Position numbers and translations under genes: made by a program. From Oligoflexales bacterium (GTDB lineage: Bacteria; Bdellovibrionota_B; Oligoflexia; Oligoflexales; Bog-1112): DNA of 64,000 bases. Location: positions 413 to 64,412 of the forward strand of contig JBGCDR010000035.1 in NCBI GenBank assembly GCA_045105515.1, read 5' to 3'. The notes under the pieces are model-generated. The model did not search any database. It saw only the letters and a program-made list of their open reading frames with translations, and was not told the DNA's origin. Positions within the stretch are counted from its first letter, which is position 1; each line of letters starts with the position of its first letter. Of this stretch, positions 33,539-59,358 are shown one piece after another.

Positions 33539-33663
33539 TCAAAAATAGCTCAACCATAAACACTTTTTTGAAAAAGTCACCAAACTAATATTTGTGGGTT
33601 TTTCAAAAACTATAAGGCATCTAATGAAAAATTTGGCAAACCAACCAAAAATTTAGAAATACT

Positions 33664-33720
33664 CACTCCTCGAGGATTACTTATCCTCCCCTAAAAGGAG
33701 GCTTTGAAAGATGGGTACAT
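33664..33720. repeat. Dispersed intergenic repeat, copy A
   Basis: ACTCCTCGAGG...CCTCCCCTAAAAGGAGG..TTTGAAAGATGG shares the CTCGAG / CCTCC / (C/T)T(C/T)GAAAGA(A)GTGG blocks with copies at 45776-45836 and 48866-48934. It lies in a convergent intergenic region. Confidence 0.4.
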
Positions 33721-33846
33721 CAACGGGTAAACTAAGGGTTCCTCTTAGCTTGGAGAAAAAGACCTACGAGTAAGCCATGCTTGCCTTCTAAGCTCGTTTG
33801 AATTTTGGAGAGGAGGAGAGGAGCAGAAGTAGATTTCTGCTCTGTA

Positions 33847-34209
33847 TTACTGCTGAAGCTGAGGGCGCTGAGGTAAGCCAACATCAGCGGTACCAAGCCA
33901 AAACTTCCAGCCCTGCCATCCTTTGACCTTATAAATCCCATCGGGGTGAGCAGGAATATTGGCTGGCTTAGGAGTCATATGAGGCATTTCACCTTTGACA
34001 TAAGAACGCCATTCCTTTCGGGTTTTTAAATTTAGAGAAACGGCAAACTTTCTCGCTTCTACAAAAGGAAGGTATCCCTTGGGAGCAACATACTCTGGCG
34101 CTACCTGTTCCTCAGATCCCGGATTAATACTTTCTGCACCTACGCTGTTTACGACAGCAACAGGTGTTCCGCCTTCTACAACATGGCTATTTTGTTGTGT
34201 TTCTTCCAT
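33847..34209 (-). CDS. Small protein (120 aa) carrying one mobile-element-associated 'integrase-repeat'-like module
   Basis: The C-terminal block YLPFVEARKFAVSLNLKTRKEWRSYVKGEMP..KPANIPAHPDGIYKVKGWQGWKFWLGT fits the FxEAR..L....EW..Y......P..IP..P...Y...GW.GW..WLG pattern. I recall that pattern from phage/virus/mobile-element proteins. It is an isolated gene in an AT-rich island. Confidence 0.45.
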   Translation of the reverse strand: MEETQQNSHVVEGGTPVAVVNSVGAESINPGSEEQVAPEYVAPKGYLPFVEARKFAVSLNLKTRKEWRSYVKGEMPHMTPKPANIPAHPDGIYKVKGWQGWKFWLGTADVGLPQRPQLQQ

Positions 34210-34237
34210 AGTCTCTCATTCCTTAGTTCAAATAGTT

Positions 34238-34260
34238 CCGCAGGGATCGCGATCCCGCGG
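34238..34260. promoter_or_regulatory. GC-rich palindrome just upstream of the 120-aa ORF
   Basis: CCGC-a-GGGATCGCGATCCC-GCGG. The 14-bp core (34243-34256) is a perfect palindrome. It lies 29-51 nt upstream of the ATG at 34209 and is a possible operator or 5'-UTR hairpin. Confidence 0.4.
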
Positions 34261-34318
34261 TAAACTGTGTATCAAACATCTCATGGCCCTGCAAGCCATG
34301 AGAGACCTCTCTTTTCTA

Positions 34319-34371
34319 CTATCTTGAAATTTTGTGCCTTTCTCATCTTGAAAGAACAAAGTTCAAGATAG
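34319..34371. promoter_or_regulatory. Cluster of ATCTTGAA / TTCAAGAT half-sites
   Basis: CTATCTTGAA (34319-34328) and TTCAAGATAG (34362-34371) form a 10-bp inverted repeat. A direct copy, ATCTTGAAA, sits at 34345-34353. A further ATCTTG-g-CAAGAT palindrome is at 34794-34806. Confidence 0.35.
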
Positions 34372-35168
34372 TTTTTGAACATTCTTTTCGTAGCTACTCA
34401 AACGATTATGGATAAACCTTCAATCTGCTACAATTGTACTTACCCTTATCCCATTGATTGCATGAGACTTTAATTAACGACACTTTCAATGATAATCAAG
34501 AAAAAACTGCTAGCGAAATTAGGTGTTCAACAACTTGATTAAAAAAACCTTTAATTAAGCACGAACAAGACAACTCATTAGTTGCTGTTAAATTCGCTTT
34601 TCTCACAACCTAAGCACAAGCAATAAAAATTTACTTGATTAGAATAAATATCAATTAAATATCCTACCTTTTTATACACCAAAAACCGTAATAAATACGC
34701 TAAAAAATGTATCTTTTTGACTAATGGTAGAGCTACCAATTAATATCAATCCTATTCGTTATATCTCTACATGTGTTTATATCATAAGTGCCGATCTTGG
34801 CAAGATAAATAAACAAGAAATCGAAAATTGAGAGGATCTCTCTATATGCAAAAGGAATTTTATTTCACAAAATCAAAGTATATTTAAGAATAATTGAATT
34901 CTTATATTTTATACTGGGTAAATTTTTTGATCGAAATACTAGTACTTTTTAGAAATCACATGCTAATTTAAAGAAAATATAAAATTTTTAAAAATATGAT
35001 ATAATTTAAAAAAACAAGTACATATTAAGTGGTGTTTATCATAATTTTTTTTGCCAAATAATCATTATTTCATTTTCTTAAACGCTTTTAAGGTGGTTGA
35101 TCAAAACATCAAAACAATAAGATATACCAATAGGTATTTTACTATCCAGATATTTAAGGACTACAAAT

Positions 35169-36014
35169 ATGCTAAATTTCACTCCCAATTTTTTAATAGT
35201 TCATCTTTTGTTGTCTCTTGTAGTATCTTGCACACATAAAGAATTTTACCAGGCATCAAAAAAGGGCCCTGTAACTGTAATTAGCAAGGGAGAAAAATCC
35301 TGTTTATCCAAGGGATTTAGATGGTATTGGAGCAAATCATCAGGCTGTTCTCTAAAGAAGTTTAAGCAATATTGCATAGAAGAGAAGAAACTTCCCAAGT
35401 CGACTAAATTAACTATCACGGTAATAAAAAATGAAACAGGAAAACAAAATTGTAGCGAAGCGGAAGCCGAATTAAAGGCCCAAACTGGTTTACACCTAGA
35501 TGGACTCGGGATTGTAGACATTTACCCTCTTATGGGTTTAACTCACTTAACAATTTTAAGATTAGATGGCAACAAAATCTACGATTTATATCCATTGTCT
35601 AAACTAGTCAAGCTACGGGTTTTACGTCTAGATCAAAATAATATAACTAAAATACAACATCTTTCAAAATTAAGAGAACTTGTAGTTTTAAGATTGGACA
35701 AAAATAATATTTCAGATTTATCACCACTAGCGAATTTAGTTAATATTGCTCAAATTAATCTAAGTACGAATAAAATTATATCAATAGAACCTCTAGAAAA
35801 ACTAAGCAGGCTCATGAAAGTTGGACTAAAAGGCAATAAAGTTAAAACATTGCTTCCATTGTCAAATTTAGAATTTCTTGAATTTATAAATCTTGAAGAC
35901 AATCCTATCAGCAGAAAAAATTTTCCTTTGAATGATTTAAACTGTCCAATAACTTTTGGGGTCAATTCAGTTGTAAAGAATTTTTGCGAGTCTAGGAGAA
36001 AACAAAAAACCTAA
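35169..36014 (+). CDS. Leucine-rich-repeat (internalin-like, about 22-residue LRR) lipoprotein
   Basis: Lipobox LVVSC with AAGGA 8 nt upstream of the ATG. About seven tandem units of LxxLxxLxLxxNxIxDLxPLxxL (for example LTHLTILRLDGNKIYDLYPLSKL and LVKLRVLRLDQNNITKIQHLSKL). Confidence 0.8.
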   Translation: MLNFTPNFLIVHLLLSLVVSCTHKEFYQASKKGPVTVISKGEKSCLSKGFRWYWSKSSGCSLKKFKQYCIEEKKLPKSTKLTITVIKNETGKQNCSEAEAELKAQTGLHLDGLGIVDIYPLMGLTHLTILRLDGNKIYDLYPLSKLVKLRVLRLDQNNITKIQHLSKLRELVVLRLDKNNISDLSPLANLVNIAQINLSTNKIISIEPLEKLSRLMKVGLKGNKVKTLLPLSNLEFLEFINLEDNPISRKNFPLNDLNCPITFGVNSVVKNFCESRRKQKT

Positions 36015-36028
36015 ATTTGCGATTCAGT

Positions 36029-36076
36029 AGCTCCCTAGGAAGGGAGAGGCGGGCAAAGAGGTGGCAATGTGTGGAG
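36029..36076. repeat. Possible degenerate copy (D) of the dispersed intergenic repeat
   Basis: AGCTCCCTAGGAAGGGAGAGGCGGGCAAAGAGGTGG resembles the CTCCCTTCGAGAAGGAG...GGGGAGAGGAGG part of the copy at 48866-48934. It is weaker than copies A-C. Confidence 0.25.
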
Positions 36077-36229
36077 TTTGTTCAGGTAGCTAGTTGAGGA
36101 AAGACCTTCACACCTAAAACATAAGTCTCTATCCACTCAAGTCAAGGTGCAGCAAGAAAGTATTTTAATTTTAGCAAGCATTATGGATAGAATTCTTTAT
36201 TTGATTCGCCTCTGTAGGCCTTTAGGAAA

Positions 36230-37237
36230 TCAGTTAAAAGACTGTTTTAATTTACGCAGACCCTCTTCAGTCGAAATACTTACTTTATAAGCAAAATCGC
36301 GTTTTGCCCTATCATGGTTGAAATAGTGGGATTTACTAAGTTGTAAGGCTAAAAACCTAGTCATCGGAGGGTCACGATGAAAAGATCCAATCCCATTGTA
36401 AAGTAACTCAAACAGACAGCCTAAAGCGAAAGCAAATGGAAACGGAATTCTTGTTGATCTCAGTGGCTTTTGTCCTCCGGCAACAAGCAGCTGGTCAATA
36501 AATTTCCAAAGTTTTACCGGCTTTTCTTGACCCAGAAAATAAGCTTTTCCACCTAATTTTTTATTTGCCTGCATAGCTTTCAAAGCGTCTGTATGAGCAG
36601 CAGCTGCATTCTCAACATAAATTACGTCCACCATATTCCCTTGGTGACCTACCCGAAAAAGACGTCCTTGCCTTGATTGCTGCAACAGCCTCGGAAGAAA
36701 ATGTGGATCATCAGGGCCCCATATGAGATGAGGTCTCAAAGCCAAAGTTTGCATTTCAGGTGAATTGGCCGCCAACACGGCTTCTTCTGCTAGTTTTTTT
36801 GAGTAGGAGTATGAACAAAAAAACTTTTTAGCGTATGGAATACTCTCGCTCAATCCTTGAATATCACGACCCTCGAAGGCAACACTAGGAGAACTGGTGT
36901 AAATCAATTGCCTAATTTTTAGCTGCCTGGCAGCCTCAATCACGTTGCGAGTCCCTTCGAAATTGGTATCCAAATAATCCTTTTGCCTACCCCAAATTCC
37001 AGCTAAAGCAGCAGTGTGTATGAAGCTGGTGCAACCTGCTCCAGCTTCCATGAGTTGGTTTACGTTCCTTAAGTCTCCTTGGTAAGATTCAATACCAAGC
37101 TCCTCAAGAAAAGAGTACTTTTTCCTCGAAAAACTAATAACCTTATAACCTCGCTCAACGAGATTTTTTGCAATATAGCGACCTAAAAAACCACCACCAC
37201 CTGTTAGTAAAATCTTTGATCCAGTCTCTGCGTTCAC
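36230..37237 (-). CDS. oleD: OleD: NAD(P)H-dependent 2-alkyl-3-oxoalkanoate reductase (3-beta-HSD / extended SDR family)
   Basis: Rossmann motif LLTGGGGFLGRYIA and catalytic YSYSKKLAE (YxxxK). The GTG start overlaps the oleC stop (GTGA, 37234-37237). It is the fourth gene of an A-B-C-D ordered cluster. Confidence 0.8.
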   Translation of the reverse strand: MNAETGSKILLTGGGGFLGRYIAKNLVERGYKVISFSRKKYSFLEELGIESYQGDLRNVNQLMEAGAGCTSFIHTAALAGIWGRQKDYLDTNFEGTRNVIEAARQLKIRQLIYTSSPSVAFEGRDIQGLSESIPYAKKFFCSYSYSKKLAEEAVLAANSPEMQTLALRPHLIWGPDDPHFLPRLLQQSRQGRLFRVGHQGNMVDVIYVENAAAAHTDALKAMQANKKLGGKAYFLGQEKPVKLWKFIDQLLVAGGQKPLRSTRIPFPFAFALGCLFELLYNGIGSFHRDPPMTRFLALQLSKSHYFNHDRAKRDFAYKVSISTEEGLRKLKQSFN

Positions 37238-38904
37238 AAGCTTAATTCCTGATGTTGAATAAAGTGCTCTCCAAGAGCACTGCGATCGATTTTAATATTA
37301 TGCCTTGGGTCCACGGGAAAGCTCTTATGGAGAAAGAATGTATCTATAGCCTCAGTGTGCTTATAAGATTTAGCTAAGCTCAAAAGTTCGTCCTTAAACA
37401 AACGTCTTTTTTTACTTCTTAGATTGCATTTATGGTCTTTTCTTTCTATTACAAGCGCCGGTATAGTACTTACACCTTTTGCTCCAATGCTTATTAAAGC
37501 TGTTCGTTTTATCTCCGGGTGTAGGTTGAAAATCGCTTCACATGGAATCGAATAAAAGGGTAATGATTCGCTCTCTATCTGATGAGCTTTACGACCACAA
37601 AACCAAAGCATCCCTTGAGGATCAAAATACCCCAGATCACCCATTCGATGCCAAAGACGCCCATTTTTTTTATCCTCTATTTTCGCAAAAGCTGTTTGCT
37701 GTTTGAGGCCATAGTACTGTGGAGTTACCTGATTTCCTGCCACGATGATCTCACCAATCTCTCCAGGGCCTAGTTCTTTACAATCACTAAGACTCTTGAT
37801 GATTTGAGAAGTCTGAGCGACAACCTTAACCTCCGTCTCAGGAGCTGGAAATCCAACACAAGTTCCCTTTCCCTGTTTGGAGGCGTTCAAGGTATCCTCG
37901 ATCACATCATTTCCACTAATACTTGTAACTGGCAAACATTCAGTTGCCCCATAAGGGGTATAAGTCTGACCATTAATCAAAATTTGGCGAAAATCTGCTA
38001 ATATCCCTGGAGGTACAGGCGCACCAAACATCATCAAATGTTTTACTGATGGAAGGTTCAAATTCTTTTGTTTACAGTACCCAGCAAGTCTCTCCCAAAT
38101 TGCGGGTGAACCTCCCATTGTCGTCACCCCTTGATCATTAATTGCTTCAAACAACTTTCGAGGATCACACTGTACCGGCTTACTCGGATTCATAGGAGGG
38201 ATAACACTAGTCACACCCATTGCCATAGTCATCAAACAAAATAAGGGAAAACCCGGCATATCAACATCTTGCTCACTCATACAGAATAATTGTTTAAGGA
38301 GTCTAACTTGAGTAGCAAAAATTCCATGTGTATAGCATACCCCCTTGGGCTTACCAGTTCCCCCAGAGGTAAATAGTATTGCAGCAAGATCATCTGCCGT
38401 AGCTGAAAACGTTGGAAAAGGGTATACAGCAAGTTTCCGGCCTTTTTTGAGAAGATTTCTAAGGCTACTAGCAGAAATACCGAAACGACCGGTAGTAATG
38501 GTATTTTTTATAGACTTAAACTGTTCAGGATAGAATCTTCTCATAACATGAACTACTGGTTCGGCAATGAGCAATTGTGGCTTAACTTCAGCAATTGCTG
38601 TCAATAAATTCTTCTTACCCATACCAGGGTCAATCATAATCGGAATTGCTCCAATCTTAAACAGAGCAAATACAACGAGAGGGAATTCCAAGGATGGTTT
38701 GAGAAAAAGCAAGACTAGGGTTCCTTTCTTGACCCCTAGCTGTTGAAAGCTATATGCAAGTGCTTCCGCATCTTTCTCTATAGCTTGGTAGGTATAATGG
38801 GTATAAGTATATCGTCGGTACAGGTCTCTGCCATTAGGAAAAATAACTGCTTTCTTATATGGGTTCTTTTTTGCCTGAATCTTAATGAGTTCTACAATAT
38901 TCAT
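37234..38904 (-). CDS. oleC: OleC: AMP-dependent ligase-family beta-lactone synthetase
   Basis: AMP-binding signature FTSGGTGKPKGV, YGATE and a later GDLGYFD..G.LWFCGRK block. 556 aa. It overlaps oleB by 23 nt. Confidence 0.85.
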   Translation of the reverse strand: MNIVELIKIQAKKNPYKKAVIFPNGRDLYRRYTYTHYTYQAIEKDAEALAYSFQQLGVKKGTLVLLFLKPSLEFPLVVFALFKIGAIPIMIDPGMGKKNLLTAIAEVKPQLLIAEPVVHVMRRFYPEQFKSIKNTITTGRFGISASSLRNLLKKGRKLAVYPFPTFSATADDLAAILFTSGGTGKPKGVCYTHGIFATQVRLLKQLFCMSEQDVDMPGFPLFCLMTMAMGVTSVIPPMNPSKPVQCDPRKLFEAINDQGVTTMGGSPAIWERLAGYCKQKNLNLPSVKHLMMFGAPVPPGILADFRQILINGQTYTPYGATECLPVTSISGNDVIEDTLNASKQGKGTCVGFPAPETEVKVVAQTSQIIKSLSDCKELGPGEIGEIIVAGNQVTPQYYGLKQQTAFAKIEDKKNGRLWHRMGDLGYFDPQGMLWFCGRKAHQIESESLPFYSIPCEAIFNLHPEIKRTALISIGAKGVSTIPALVIERKDHKCNLRSKKRRLFKDELLSLAKSYKHTEAIDTFFLHKSFPVDPRHNIKIDRSALGEHFIQHQELSL

Positions 38905-39784
38905 CTTTAACTAAAAACCTCTCCATTGCAGCAAGCACAGCTTGCGTCTCATCTTCGAGTAAATAATGCCCCCCTTCAGGGAATACAATGGACTTGGCTC
39001 TAGGGAAAAGAGTTTTCCACTTTTCCAAAAAACCTAGATGAAAGCAAAAGTCCTTAGCTCCCCATAGGAGCTGCATTGGAGCCTGCAAATTCCCAAGGCC
39101 TAACTCAATTGACCTCACAGTTTCATAGCTTGGATGGCTTGAAAAATAAGGTATATCTTGAACAAACCGTGCTATTCCAATCCGATTACGATAATTGTTA
39201 TAGGGGAACAAAAGGCCTTTTTTTACTTTTGGATCTAAGCCCTTACCTGTAGCCATAAATGAAGCTGCCAGTGCAAAAGCATTAAACCTTCGCATAAGCA
39301 TCTCACCCACAACAGGAGTTTTACATGCACTGATACGTTTCGGAATATCTCTAGATAAGAAAGCTGCAGAATTCATGACAATAACATTTTCAACCTTTTC
39401 AGGATGCTTCACAGCAAAACCTAAACCAATTGCTCCTCCCCAATCATGAAGTAACAAGGAGACTTTATCAATATTTAAACCTTCTATTAAAGCCTCGAAA
39501 TTTTTAATATGATTGCTGAGAGTATAGGAATAATCTTGAGGGTGATCTGACAAACCACATCCAAGATGATCGAATGCTACGACCCGCATCTTCTCGCGAA
39601 AATGCTCAATCACGTTGCGAAAATAAAAAGACCAAGTAGGGTTGCCGTGAACACAAATAAGTGCCTTTCCTTTACCTTCATCAATGTAATTGAGACGGTA
39701 ATCATGTGCACTTTCTCCACCATCTAGCAAGAATGACCGGGCTTGAAAAGGTAGGAATTCATCTGAAGTTTGAGGATTCACCAC
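38882..39784 (-). CDS. oleB: OleB: alpha/beta-hydrolase (haloalkane-dehalogenase-like) beta-lactone decarboxylase
   Basis: HGNPTWSFYFR and the nucleophile elbow LLLHDWGGAIG (Asp nucleophile, as in haloalkane dehalogenases and OleB), plus a C-terminal GGHYLLED His motif. The GTG start overlaps the oleA stop (GTGGTGA). Confidence 0.85.
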   Translation of the reverse strand: MVNPQTSDEFLPFQARSFLLDGGESAHDYRLNYIDEGKGKALICVHGNPTWSFYFRNVIEHFREKMRVVAFDHLGCGLSDHPQDYSYTLSNHIKNFEALIEGLNIDKVSLLLHDWGGAIGLGFAVKHPEKVENVIVMNSAAFLSRDIPKRISACKTPVVGEMLMRRFNAFALAASFMATGKGLDPKVKKGLLFPYNNYRNRIGIARFVQDIPYFSSHPSYETVRSIELGLGNLQAPMQLLWGAKDFCFHLGFLEKWKTLFPRAKSIVFPEGGHYLLEDETQAVLAAMERFLVKDEYCRTH

Positions 39785-40803
39785 TGAACTCCTAGCATCA
39801 TACAGTTGAGACCAGAGCCAATACCTAGTAGTGCCAGAAGATCACCACTCTTAAAAGTGCCTTTTTCTTCCTGCAAGGATAATGAAAGTGGGGTTGCTAC
39901 TGTGCCGGTGTTCCCTAAGGTCTGCATATCGAAAAAAGCTTTTCTTTCATCAAGCCCAAGCAAATTAAAAACTTTGGATTGATGTGAACGACTAACCTGA
40001 TGGTTAAAAATATAATCGGGGGTGCTGTTATCCCATCCCAAATGTTGCTTAAAATATTCCCAAGTTACCTGCGAAAGAGCTAAACCAGATTTCATTAACC
40101 CACTAGTATTTGTCACCATCGTCTGATGGTAGCAATCTCCATGACCTTCACATAGATCATAAGCATCATTATCAGTTTGGGAGACCCCTCCCAAAAGATA
40201 GTGCTGGCTTCGGCTTATATCCTTATGCTGCAATACAAATGCAACAGCACCCGAGCCAAGAGTCAAGCTAGCCATAGACTCGCGGATGTTAGCTCCTTCC
40301 TGGTTTTCAAGTAGGGCTTTGATCGTAACTTCGTAAATTGGCGCTGAGTTTTCGCCAGAGACAACAAGGGCAGTTTTGATCTGGCCAAGCTCTATCATAT
40401 TTGCCGCAACCGTCAGACCATTTAAAAAACCTAGACATGCATTTGAAAGATCAAATGCCATGCAGTGAGGAGGCAAGTTTAACTCGTGATGAACCACATT
40501 TGCTGTGGAGGGCTCCGATGCATCGCGACAAACCCCGGTATGCATCACGAGGTCGACCTCTTCCGGAGCAACTCCTGCCTTAACCAAAGATTTTCTTCCA
40601 GCTTGCGAGGCAACAGATGAAGGTTTTGTGCCAACAGGCCAAACTCTGCGGGACCGAATCCCAGTGAGTAACTCTAAATACCCTGTCTGCAATGAATATC
40701 TGTCCCACAATGGCTTTAACCTGGTCTCAATTTCCTCGGAAGTTAACTCCTGCTCAGGTAAAAAATGTCCGGTTGATTCGATACATACATTGCGATATCT
40801 CAT
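39778..40803 (-). CDS. oleA: OleA: FabH-like thiolase catalysing head-to-head acyl-CoA Claisen condensation
   Basis: Blocks EPSTANVV, HCMAFDLSNACLGFLNG (active-site Cys), ALVVSGE, LTLGSGA, NHQVSRSH, GNTGTVATP and the C-terminal LALLGIGSGLNCMMLGVQW. These agree with my recollection of Xanthomonas-type OleA rather than housekeeping FabH. Confidence 0.88.
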   Translation of the reverse strand: MRYRNVCIESTGHFLPEQELTSEEIETRLKPLWDRYSLQTGYLELLTGIRSRRVWPVGTKPSSVASQAGRKSLVKAGVAPEEVDLVMHTGVCRDASEPSTANVVHHELNLPPHCMAFDLSNACLGFLNGLTVAANMIELGQIKTALVVSGENSAPIYEVTIKALLENQEGANIRESMASLTLGSGAVAFVLQHKDISRSQHYLLGGVSQTDNDAYDLCEGHGDCYHQTMVTNTSGLMKSGLALSQVTWEYFKQHLGWDNSTPDYIFNHQVSRSHQSKVFNLLGLDERKAFFDMQTLGNTGTVATPLSLSLQEEKGTFKSGDLLALLGIGSGLNCMMLGVQW

Positions 40804-41049
40804 AGAGTTGCTCCGAAAACGCCTTCAAATTCAAACACTCAAAAAATAAAAGCTGCTTGGTTTCTGTCCAATCCCTTGAAATCCAGTGAAGCTTTTTCAC
40901 TGGAACAAACATCAGGTAAAAAGCAATACTGTTATAGAGGTTCAAGCCAAATTCTGTAATCTTTATTTTATTCGCGATTGAATCTGGCTCTCTAGCTATT
41001 TGTAAGAAGTTATATAATTATAGAAAATAATTTTGACTATTGATATCTT

Positions 41050-59157: not shown

Positions 59158-59358
59158 TGTAAGCTCACCAAGCAGATCAACGCGCGGTAGAACCCACCTT
59201 CTGATAGGTGGGTGCCACACAACCGTTTTAGGCTTCCCTCTACCTGAGTTCGCATATATGTTAATGCGAAATGGAGGGCTTGCACACCGCGGATAGATTA
59301 GGTTCCCTTTTTAAGAGCATCGGTTCTCCGGCAATTTAACCTAGCCGATGAGCTTACA
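59158..59358. ncRNA. Candidate structured RNA of about 200 nt. Class and strand unresolved.
   Basis: Nested perfect helices. P1 pairs 59158-59167 with 59349-59358 (10 bp). CGCGG 59183-59187 pairs with CCGCG 59287-59291. Hairpin ACCCACC/GGTGGGT spans 59192-59213. CCCTC 59236-59240 pairs with GAGGG 59274-59278 and encloses hairpin TTCGCAT/ATGCGAA at 59249-59270. TAGGTT pairs with AACCTA (about 59308-59342). A possible AACCG/CGGTT tertiary pair exists. The region is non-coding and more GC-rich than its flanks. Confidence 0.4.

Follow-up and report, generated by a model that had tools for sequence, protein, structure and literature searches.

Four adjacent genes in a 64,000-nucleotide stretch of DNA (the whole stretch that was analysed, referred to here as the window) very probably form a functional oleABCD operon of an uncultured Bdellovibrionota-type bacterium, inherited within its family. 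The products usually carry the labels 3-oxoacyl-ACP synthase III, alpha/beta hydrolase, fatty-acid CoA ligase and NAD-dependent epimerase, and are better read jointly, as an olefin pathway. The chief value of this result is accurate annotation. No new mechanism is involved: the biochemistry of the Ole enzymes is understood in detail, and published ole genes already exist for the broad group.

Layout of the operon

The four genes and the region ahead of them are listed in Table 1. An earlier, sequence-only reading had described a complete, translationally coupled cluster of consecutive minus-strand genes in the order A-B-C-D; the same four reading frames stand in the mechanical ORF list, the overlaps at the junctions were read from the sequence, and this core reading draws its support from four sources: family models, catalytic residues, phylogeny and synteny. 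The oleA/oleB overlap is 7 nt (GTGGTGA) when counted from the first GTG (CAG TGG TGA; oleB frame GTG GTG AAT) and 4 nt (GTGA) if oleB starts at the second GTG, at 39781. This second GTG is the start in a public gene call, gives a protein of 299 aa, and has GGAG 7 nt ahead of it; GGAG is also found 7 nt upstream of the oleA ATG. The oleB/oleC overlap is 23 nt and the oleC/oleD overlap 4 nt (GTGA). All four genes, oleB included, lie together on one strand. Ole proteins assemble into an OleBCD complex, and the overlapping frames would be compatible with co-translation of its proteins.

Table 1. Features of the putative ole operon in the window
Feature	Position	Strand	Length and start	Assignment
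oleA	39778-40803	minus	341 aa, ATG start	OleA-type thiolase
oleB	38882-39784	minus	300 aa, GTG start	subfamily-III haloalkane-dehalogenase-like alpha/beta hydrolase
oleC	37234-38904	minus	556 aa, ATG start	ANL-superfamily adenylating enzyme
oleD	36230-37237	minus	335 aa, GTG start	3-beta-HSD/extended-SDR reductase
oleA-glpX divergent intergenic region	40804-41049	no strand	246 bp	presumed operon promoter region

A consensus scan of the gap between oleA and glpX placed minus-strand promoter-like hexamers at 40994-40965 and 40870-40843, in numbers no greater than in shuffled sequence, and the promoter and terminator scan at the operon gave no clear candidate above background. The stretch was found in three DNA runs and in no RNA run. 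The source genome is a 6.3-Mb metagenome-assembled genome (MAG) from a "plant metagenome".

Identity of the four enzymes

Profile searches matched the four proteins to their expected families with E values of 1e-124, 3e-43, 4e-177 and 2e-107, and a whole-genome search found each of the four genes in single copy. None of the four enzymes has lost its catalytic residues, which are also conserved in sets of 30-99 homologues. The comparison with known Ole proteins that the sequence-only reading had proposed held in part: all four fall in the expected families, and OleA and OleC exceed a curated cut-off, but OleC and OleD score below the cut-offs of the Xanthomonas and Shewanella equivalog models.

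OleA carries the Pfam domains ACP_syn_III and ACP_syn_III_C and scores 415.7 bits on NCBIfam PRK09258 (cut-off 285). It aligns end to end with X. campestris OleA (PDB 3ROW, E = 3e-71), the best FabH match being 1e-23, a gap of about 160 bits in favor of OleA. Its catalytic residues are identical to those of the X. campestris enzyme: C123, E97-P98, H268 and N298 align to C143, E117-P, H285 and N315. Among 99 homologues, C123, P98, H268 and N298 are kept in all and E97 in 97. The Glu117-Pro pair is diagnostic of OleA and absent from FabH, the Glu being the base supplied across the dimer (PMC7064751). A published OleA search pattern, EPxx[AS]x(14,18)DxxNACL (Surger et al. 2020, PMC7158056), is matched as EPSTANVVHHELNLPPHCMAFDLSNACL, the sole match when the whole genome was scanned in six frames; none of the genome's four FabH-like paralogues matches it. 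In a tree of OleA and FabH sequences, a check suggested in the sequence-only reading, the thiolase and X. campestris OleA share a clade of 98 rows (support 100/99), and the four paralogues are the outgroup, across a very long branch. The enzyme would be expected to perform a non-decarboxylative, head-to-head Claisen condensation of two long-chain acyl-CoAs. It is exceedingly improbable that four unrelated genes lie side by side here, with a housekeeping FabH/KAS III as the thiolase, as the public-pipeline label "3-oxoacyl-ACP synthase III" for its family might suggest. That reading is opposed by the Glu-Pro signature, the pattern match, the score gap and the genome's possession of separate FabH-like paralogues, and refuted by the tree placement.

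The catalytic pentad of subfamily-III haloalkane dehalogenases (HLD-III) consists of an Asn and a Trp that bind the halide or oxyanion, an Asp nucleophile, an Asp acid and a His base. OleB, which matches Pfam Abhydrolase_1, has as its closest solved relative the HLD-III enzyme DhmeA (8CKP, E = 1e-34), and its N48, D114, W115, D245 and H273 align to the DhmeA pentad N63, D129, W130, D258 and H286 (PMC10503415). All 56 cluster-embedded homologues share the five residues. The gene also has the position expected of an oleB, which in ole clusters lies between oleA and oleC or is fused to oleC. The HDWGG motif pointed out in the sequence-only reading is present, at residues 113-117. Some homologues at 48-50% identity bear the JGI name cis-3-alkyl-4-acyloxetan-2-one decarboxylase. 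Judged from its residues, context and homologue names, OleB is probably a beta-lactone decarboxylase.

The best-scoring family for OleC is PRK09274 (589.7 bits, cut-off 478); the second-ranked family reaches 200 bits, and elsewhere in the genome no locus scores above 52 bits. Full-length matches to OlefBLtnSynXan (NF045786) and OlefBLtnSynShew (NF045785) score 479 and 466 bits, below the respective cut-offs of 900 and 850; these Xanthomonas and Shewanella beta-lactone synthetase models are narrow, and PRK09274 is broader. OleC also matches Pfam AMP-binding (E = 2e-59). Also conserved are the TSGGTGKPKG, YGATE, GD and GR motifs, together with the C-terminal Lys538; the residues concerned are T179, G181, G184, K187, E322, D423, R438 and K538. 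We infer that OleC is an olefin beta-lactone synthetase. OleD matches Pfam 3Beta_HSD (E = 5e-52), and its best NCBIfam match is oxyalk_red_Shew (NF042423) at 359 bits, with oxyalk_red_OleD (NF042422) at 337 bits; the cut-off of both is 580, and the next family, HpnA, is more than 200 bits behind both at 126 bits. The N-terminal GGGGFLG is present, with the GxxGxxG at residues 13-19 retained in 29 of 30 homologues, and the YxxxK motif noted in the sequence-only reading is YSYSK (residues 143-147), its Y143 and K147 retained in 30 of 30. OleD is predicted to be an NADPH-dependent 2-alkyl-3-oxoalkanoate reductase.

The cluster has the same four enzyme families, in the same A-B-C-D order, as OleABCD of Xanthomonas campestris and Stenotrophomonas maltophilia. 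OleA structures for that system include 3ROW and 4KU5. The HLD-III pentad is common to OleB here and in Xanthomonas and Stenotrophomonas, and the Xanthomonas equivalog models are among the top full-length matches of OleC and OleD, though the scores mark both proteins as diverged. The present system differs from that of Xanthomonas in that all three junctions overlap and in its host, an uncultured low-GC Bdellovibrionota-type bacterium. Likeness to Shewanella is seen in the score of OleC on the Shewanella model and in the top rank of the Shewanella model for OleD.

Pathway, acyl supply and end product

Ole biochemistry is established in Xanthomonas, Shewanella and Micrococcus, and the steps proposed here are drawn from homology to those systems. 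OleA would join a pair of long-chain acyl thioesters head to head to give a 2-alkyl-3-oxo acid, which OleD, with NADPH, would reduce to a 3-hydroxy acid. OleC would adenylate the 3-hydroxy acid and close the ring, giving a cis-beta-lactone, and OleB, through its Asp114 nucleophile, would decarboxylate the lactone to a cis-olefin retained in the membrane. Acyl chains made by type II FAS could give an ordinary C27-C33 mono- to poly-ene as the product; five fatty-acid desaturases are encoded in the genome.

A different acyl supply is possible, though we consider it unlikely: a Pfa-like megasynthase might feed OleA, yielding a very-long-chain polyunsaturated hydrocarbon in place of a simple FAS-derived olefin. 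Such a product has a precedent in Shewanella oneidensis and S. pealeana, where OleABCD together with a Pfa synthase yields a 31:9 polyunsaturated hydrocarbon and the link from Pfa to Ole is established (PMC6463001). PfaA- and PfaC-like genes are also encoded in the present genome. The PfaA-like protein (2065 aa, KS-AT-ACP-KR) scores 634 bits on TIGR02813 over the whole protein, under the family cut-off of 1010, which speaks against this supply. The PfaC-like protein (2148 aa, KS-CLF-DH-DH) is split between two contigs, C435 and C308, and differs from that of Shewanella in having about 400 additional residues at its C terminus, which match no family.

The distribution of the pfa genes bears on both sides of the question. 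Among 41 genomes (the window's own and 40 relatives), a PfaC-like protein is present in 12, every one of them OleA-positive, and in none of the 19 OleA-negative genomes (Fisher one-sided p = 8e-5, uncorrected for phylogeny); in the relatives, pfa genes are confined to ole-positive genomes. Moreover, in the genome of one member of the same order (G024), pfaD and oleA are divergently transcribed and about 450 bp apart. These observations hint that in part of the order the Ole pathway may be coupled to Pfa-type synthases, as in Shewanella. Against such feeding in the present genome, the pfa-like genes lie on other contigs, unlinked to ole, and PfaD was not found in the genome (the MAG is 91% complete, and its pfa cluster is broken at contig ends) or in the sister species, whereas it exceeded the cut-off in 9 of 9 other Pfa-positive relatives tested. 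Eight other OleA-positive species of the family have no Pfa-like genes, indicating that ole is independent of them. It is more doubtful still that Ole in this genus is fed by an unusual, enoyl-reductase-less Pfa-like megasynthase, with a polyene-like or otherwise atypical very-long-chain hydrocarbon as the product and the nesting of pfa within ole-positive genomes reflecting a pfa-ole partnership. If this were true, the nesting in Oligoflexales would represent a functional partnership of the two systems outside the Gammaproteobacteria.

With OleB present, the likelier end product is an olefin, in agreement with the sequence-only reading, which had preferred an olefin to a retained beta-lactone. 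It is very unlikely that the pathway stops at a beta-lactone or a ketone, with the OleB homologue inactive or otherwise employed. OleA, OleC and OleD alone suffice for a beta-lactone (PMC7064751), and OleB was scored without an OleB-specific curated model, but oleB is present between oleA and oleC, overlapping both, its pentad is intact and invariant, and its dN/dS relative to the sister species is 0.09 (oleA, 0.04). The lipstatin (lstABCD) and nocardiolactone (nltABCD) clusters, in which OleA-, OleC- and OleD-type enzymes make a beta-lactone from two acyl chains, have a heterodimeric OleA pair and no oleB, whereas a single OleA and an intact OleB are found here; the absence of oleB is a defining feature of beta-lactone natural-product clusters (PMC7064751).

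Distribution and origin

The olefin pathway is, on the evidence of its genes, an inherited trait of the family and not a recent acquisition. Within the family, 14 of 16 species have OleA, and across the phylum 47 of 131 do; PRK09258 exceeded its cut-off in none of 14 control genomes. At least 12 related genomes share the A-B-C-D order, which also recurs in many other phyla. The divergent glpX lies beside the operon in seven relatives as well, across genera. The sister species keeps the whole PBP1A-LRR-oleDCBA-glpX-ATP-grasp neighbourhood. In the tree, a single clade unites the OleA sequences of the family with those of its sister family; there, the window's OleA joins sequences from its own genus, and next those from the family's other genera. 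The distribution shows long-chain hydrocarbon synthesis, as predicted from these genes, to be a widespread inherited membrane-lipid trait of this uncultured Oligoflexales family.

The sequence-only reading had taken the cluster for a rare, accessory lipid trait beside an AT-rich island. Neither the rarity nor the accessory status holds in this lineage, given the species counts, the conserved gene order and glpX neighbour, and a native base composition. The island is real as a low-GC stretch, which adjoins oleD (33539-36229, 2.7 kb), but it is mild (GC 0.343, the 6.6th percentile of same-size genome windows), and its AT-rich LRR gene belongs to the neighbourhood conserved in the sister species. 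Recent acquisition of the cluster as an accessory island trait is slightly less probable even than a retained beta-lactone or ketone product. Such an origin would fit the low-GC stretch, the patchy distribution of ole across bacteria and the presence of two separate OleA clades within the order, but is opposed by the single clade for the family and its sister family, by the prevalence of OleA in the family, and by the cross-genus synteny and the neighbourhood common to the sister species. The GC of the operon (0.418, the 87th percentile, against a genome mean of 0.383), its GC3 and its codon usage also resemble those of housekeeping neighbours, and no tRNA, and no mobility gene among the neighbouring ORFs scanned, was found. 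One of the two OleA clades within the order is nested among Planctomycetota sequences, which makes ancient transfers of ole into the order likely.

Ole clusters have been described in Halobacteriovorax marinus and the "Oligoflexia" (Smith et al., mBio 2020, PMC7064751), likewise predatory-lineage Bdellovibrionota, and an OleA of Halobacteriovorax was shown to be active; "Oligoflexia" ole genes are already published. Loci from Bacteriovoracaceae and Halobacteriovorax (L034, L047 and L092) have the A-B-C-D order found here. In contrast, OleA identity to H. marinus is only about 45%, and in the tree the OleA of the window's family forms a clade of its own, outside that of the Bacteriovoracaceae.

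The ole operon and its four enzymes

The sequence-only reading had described the four minus-strand genes as a complete, overlapping oleABCD operon. Their coordinates match the ORF list exactly, the overlap at all three junctions was verified by reading the sequence, and the HDWGG and YxxxK motifs were both found as quoted. The A/B junction reads CAG TGG TGA, with the oleB frame as GTG GTG AAT; the overlap is 7 nt when counted from the first GTG and 4 nt from the second, which has the better GGAG spacing and is the start used by a public gene call. The B/C overlap is 23 nt and the C/D overlap is GTGA. These overlapping frames fit balanced synthesis of the Ole proteins. OleB, OleC and OleD form an OleBCD assembly in Xanthomonas. 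The cluster is the plain four-gene form, without an extra fatty-acid or flavoenzyme module, and each of its genes is single-copy in the genome. A scan for promoters and terminators returned counts no higher than in shuffled sequence, and operon boundaries therefore could not be drawn from it. The sequencing runs that contain the locus comprise three DNA runs, labeled "plant metagenome", and zero RNA runs.

Features of the window and of related loci (ole genes as in the ORF list; G000 is the window's own genome, C a contig, L a locus)
Feature	Location	Strand	Description
oleA	39778-40803	minus	341 aa
oleB	38882-39784	minus	300 aa
oleC	37234-38904	minus	556 aa
oleD	36230-37237	minus	335 aa
LRR protein gene	35169-36014	plus	281 aa, GC 0.317, lipoprotein-like N-terminus (LVVSC)
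Small ORF	33847-34209	minus	120 aa, no family match, conserved in sister species
6S (SsrS) RNA	59159-59356	minus	RF00013
PfaA-like ORF and start of PfaC-like ORF	G000:C435:15794-24831 (L128)		PfaA-like 2065 aa, KS-AT-ACP-KR
Continuation of PfaC-like ORF	G000:C308:3-3311 (L129)		contig break splits ORF
Second small lipid-type gene group	G000:C3:14911-19272		KAS III-like thiolase and 3-beta-HSD/SDR protein

Several lines of evidence identify the thiolase as OleA. It scores 415.7 bits against PRK09258 (NCBIfam; cut-off 285), and true FabH models reach at most 124 bits. Among solved structures, Xanthomonas campestris OleA aligns to it end to end (E 3e-71; best FabH, 1e-23), and C123, E97-P98, H268 and N298 align with Cys143, Glu117-Pro, His285 and Asn315 of that enzyme. 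The Glu-Pro pair is the mark by which the Wackett group separates OleA from other thiolases (PMC7064751). When all six frames of the 6.3-Mb genome were scanned with the published OleA search pattern, EPxx[AS]x(14,18)DxxNACL (PMC7158056), the single match lay in oleA, and none of the four FabH-like paralogues fitted the pattern. In a maximum-likelihood tree of 102 sequences the protein fell within a 98-member clade that includes X. campestris OleA (support 100/99), and a very long branch lies between this clade and the four paralogues. Clustering with housekeeping FabH, which would have overturned the original assignment, was not what the tree returned; structure matches, tree and pattern scan together rule out a FabH identity.

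A search of the PDB returned no solved OleB, OleC or OleD structure, so the comparison with characterised enzymes is based on NCBIfam models. The best family for OleC is PRK09274 (589.7 bits, cut-off 478); two olefin beta-lactone synthetase equivalogs match it at full length with 479 and 466 bits, below their narrow cut-offs, and the next family after them scores 200 bits. The top matches of OleD are two 2-alkyl-3-oxoalkanoate reductase equivalogs (359 and 337 bits, below the cut-off of 580), followed by HpnA at 126 bits. OleB matches haloalkane-dehalogenase models with at most 148 bits, in every case below the cut-off. The closest PDB structures are human NSDHL for OleD, a Thermus long-chain fatty-acid CoA ligase for OleC and DhmeA for OleB, and all five residues of the OleB pentad align with DhmeA. 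DhmeA is the first structure of a haloalkane-dehalogenase-like protein of subfamily III, to which X. campestris OleB has been assigned (PMC10503415). Catalytic residues of all four Ole enzymes are invariant, or almost so, among 30-99 ole-cluster homologues. A plasmid search with OleC recovered actinobacterial relatives only, all distant (at most 33% identity). We consider the identification of oleABCD to be supported with high confidence.

Distribution and ancestry of the cluster

The operon had also been taken for a rare, accessory trait, a view that the comparisons do not support. At the level of the family, an accessory island or horizontal transfer is rejected by prevalence, synteny, GC, GC3, codon usage and the OleA tree. 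OleA exceeds the curated cut-off in 13 of 16 species-level genomes of the family, and one further family genome has a copy split into two frames; across the phylum it occurs in 47 of 131 genomes, compared with 0 of 14 control genomes. The gene order A-B-C-D is kept throughout the relatives compared, and in seven related genomes, representing six further genera, glpX lies next to oleA in divergent orientation. The sister species has the entire PBP1A-LRR-oleDCBA-glpX-ATP-grasp neighborhood in common with the window, the low-GC LRR gene included. The cluster has a GC content of 0.418 (87th percentile; genome mean 0.383), similar to the adjoining glpX, PBP1A and degP, and its codon usage correlates with that of the genome about as well as does the codon usage of the neighbors. 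In the tree, OleA proteins of the window's family group with those of the sister family in a single clade. In comparison with the sister species, oleA has a dN/dS of 0.04 and oleB one of 0.09; dS is saturated for oleC and oleD, which hence yield no ratio.

Some relatives depart from the full arrangement. An oleA in two frames (G015:C134:1972-2966) is a possible pseudogene, oleD was not found beside oleC in two genomes (G007:C12 and G014:C2), and oleA and oleB alone are adjacent in three others (G009, G019 and G034). The order's OleA sequences are divided between two distinct clades: one is particular to families f1 and f2, the window's OleA among them, and the other, which is rich in Planctomycetota, contains the sequences of f3, f5, f10 and f15. 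Given these two clades, the data suggest that ole had two origins within the order.

Predicted product and a candidate source of substrates

The pathway itself is a known one, found here in an uncultured lineage. More than 1000 genomes have been reported with ole clusters (PMC7158056), which span 17 bacterial classes, "Oligoflexia" explicitly among them, and OleA of Halobacteriovorax marinus has been shown to be active (PMC7064751). By analogy with the Ole systems characterised in Xanthomonas, Shewanella and Micrococcus (PMC7158056, PMC7064751), OleA would most likely join two acyl chains, OleD would reduce the resulting 3-keto acid, OleC would form a beta-lactone and OleB would remove CO2 to give a cis-olefin. 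Since the cluster contains an intact oleB, the expected end product is an olefin and not a beta-lactone that is retained.

The genome carries five fatty-acid desaturase genes. A search of it for true FabA found none and exposed instead a Pfa-like megasynthase. The PfaC-like ORF follows the PfaA-like ORF, leaves contig C435 and resumes on C308; its domains are KS-CLF-DH-DH, both DH being FabA-type dehydratases, with an extra C-terminal region of ~400 residues that has no family match. The PfaC-like protein of the sister species is intact at 2148 aa (G001:C703, L132). No PfaD enoyl reductase was detected in either of these two genomes, which are both genomes of the genus; PfaD exceeded the cut-off in all nine other Pfa-positive relatives tested. 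A PfaC-like protein is present in 12 of 41 genomes (those of 40 relatives and the window's own), namely 12 of the 22 with OleA and 0 of the 19 without (p = 8e-5, shared ancestry ignored). In one genome of the same order (G024:C223:6019-21497; L130, L113), pfaC-pfaA-pfaD divergently adjoins oleABCD, with ~450 bp between the end of pfaD and the start of oleA. The co-occurrence and this adjacency mirror the Pfa-Ole link known in Shewanella (PMC6463001), and it is therefore plausible that the Pfa-like megasynthase supplies OleA substrates. Apart from routine annotation, the only leads are the PfaD-less synthase and the confinement of pfa to ole-positive genomes.

The second small lipid-type gene group in the genome is ruled out as an ole cluster because its thiolase is without the OleA signature. 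Its 3-beta-HSD/SDR protein is 27% identical to OleD; the group also includes a protein that resembles, by eye only, MBL-fold hydrolases, and a gene for a membrane transporter lies between these members.

The low-GC stretch and a 6S RNA

Of the AT-rich island noted beside the cluster (33539-36229), the GC dip is present but only modest (0.343, 6.6th percentile). It contains the lipoprotein-like LRR protein gene and the conserved small ORF. The LRR gene is convergent with oleD and 68% identical to the sister-species copy, and internalin-type LRR models match it best. An Rfam search of the gap at 33539-35168 returned nothing significant. The ~230 bp upstream of the 120-aa ORF (~34170-34400) are almost identical between both species, a conservation above that of flanking coding DNA, and contain GC-rich palindromes. 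Elsewhere in the window, the 6S RNA matched its full Rfam model with 58.3 bits (gathering score 46.4; E 5.5e-9).
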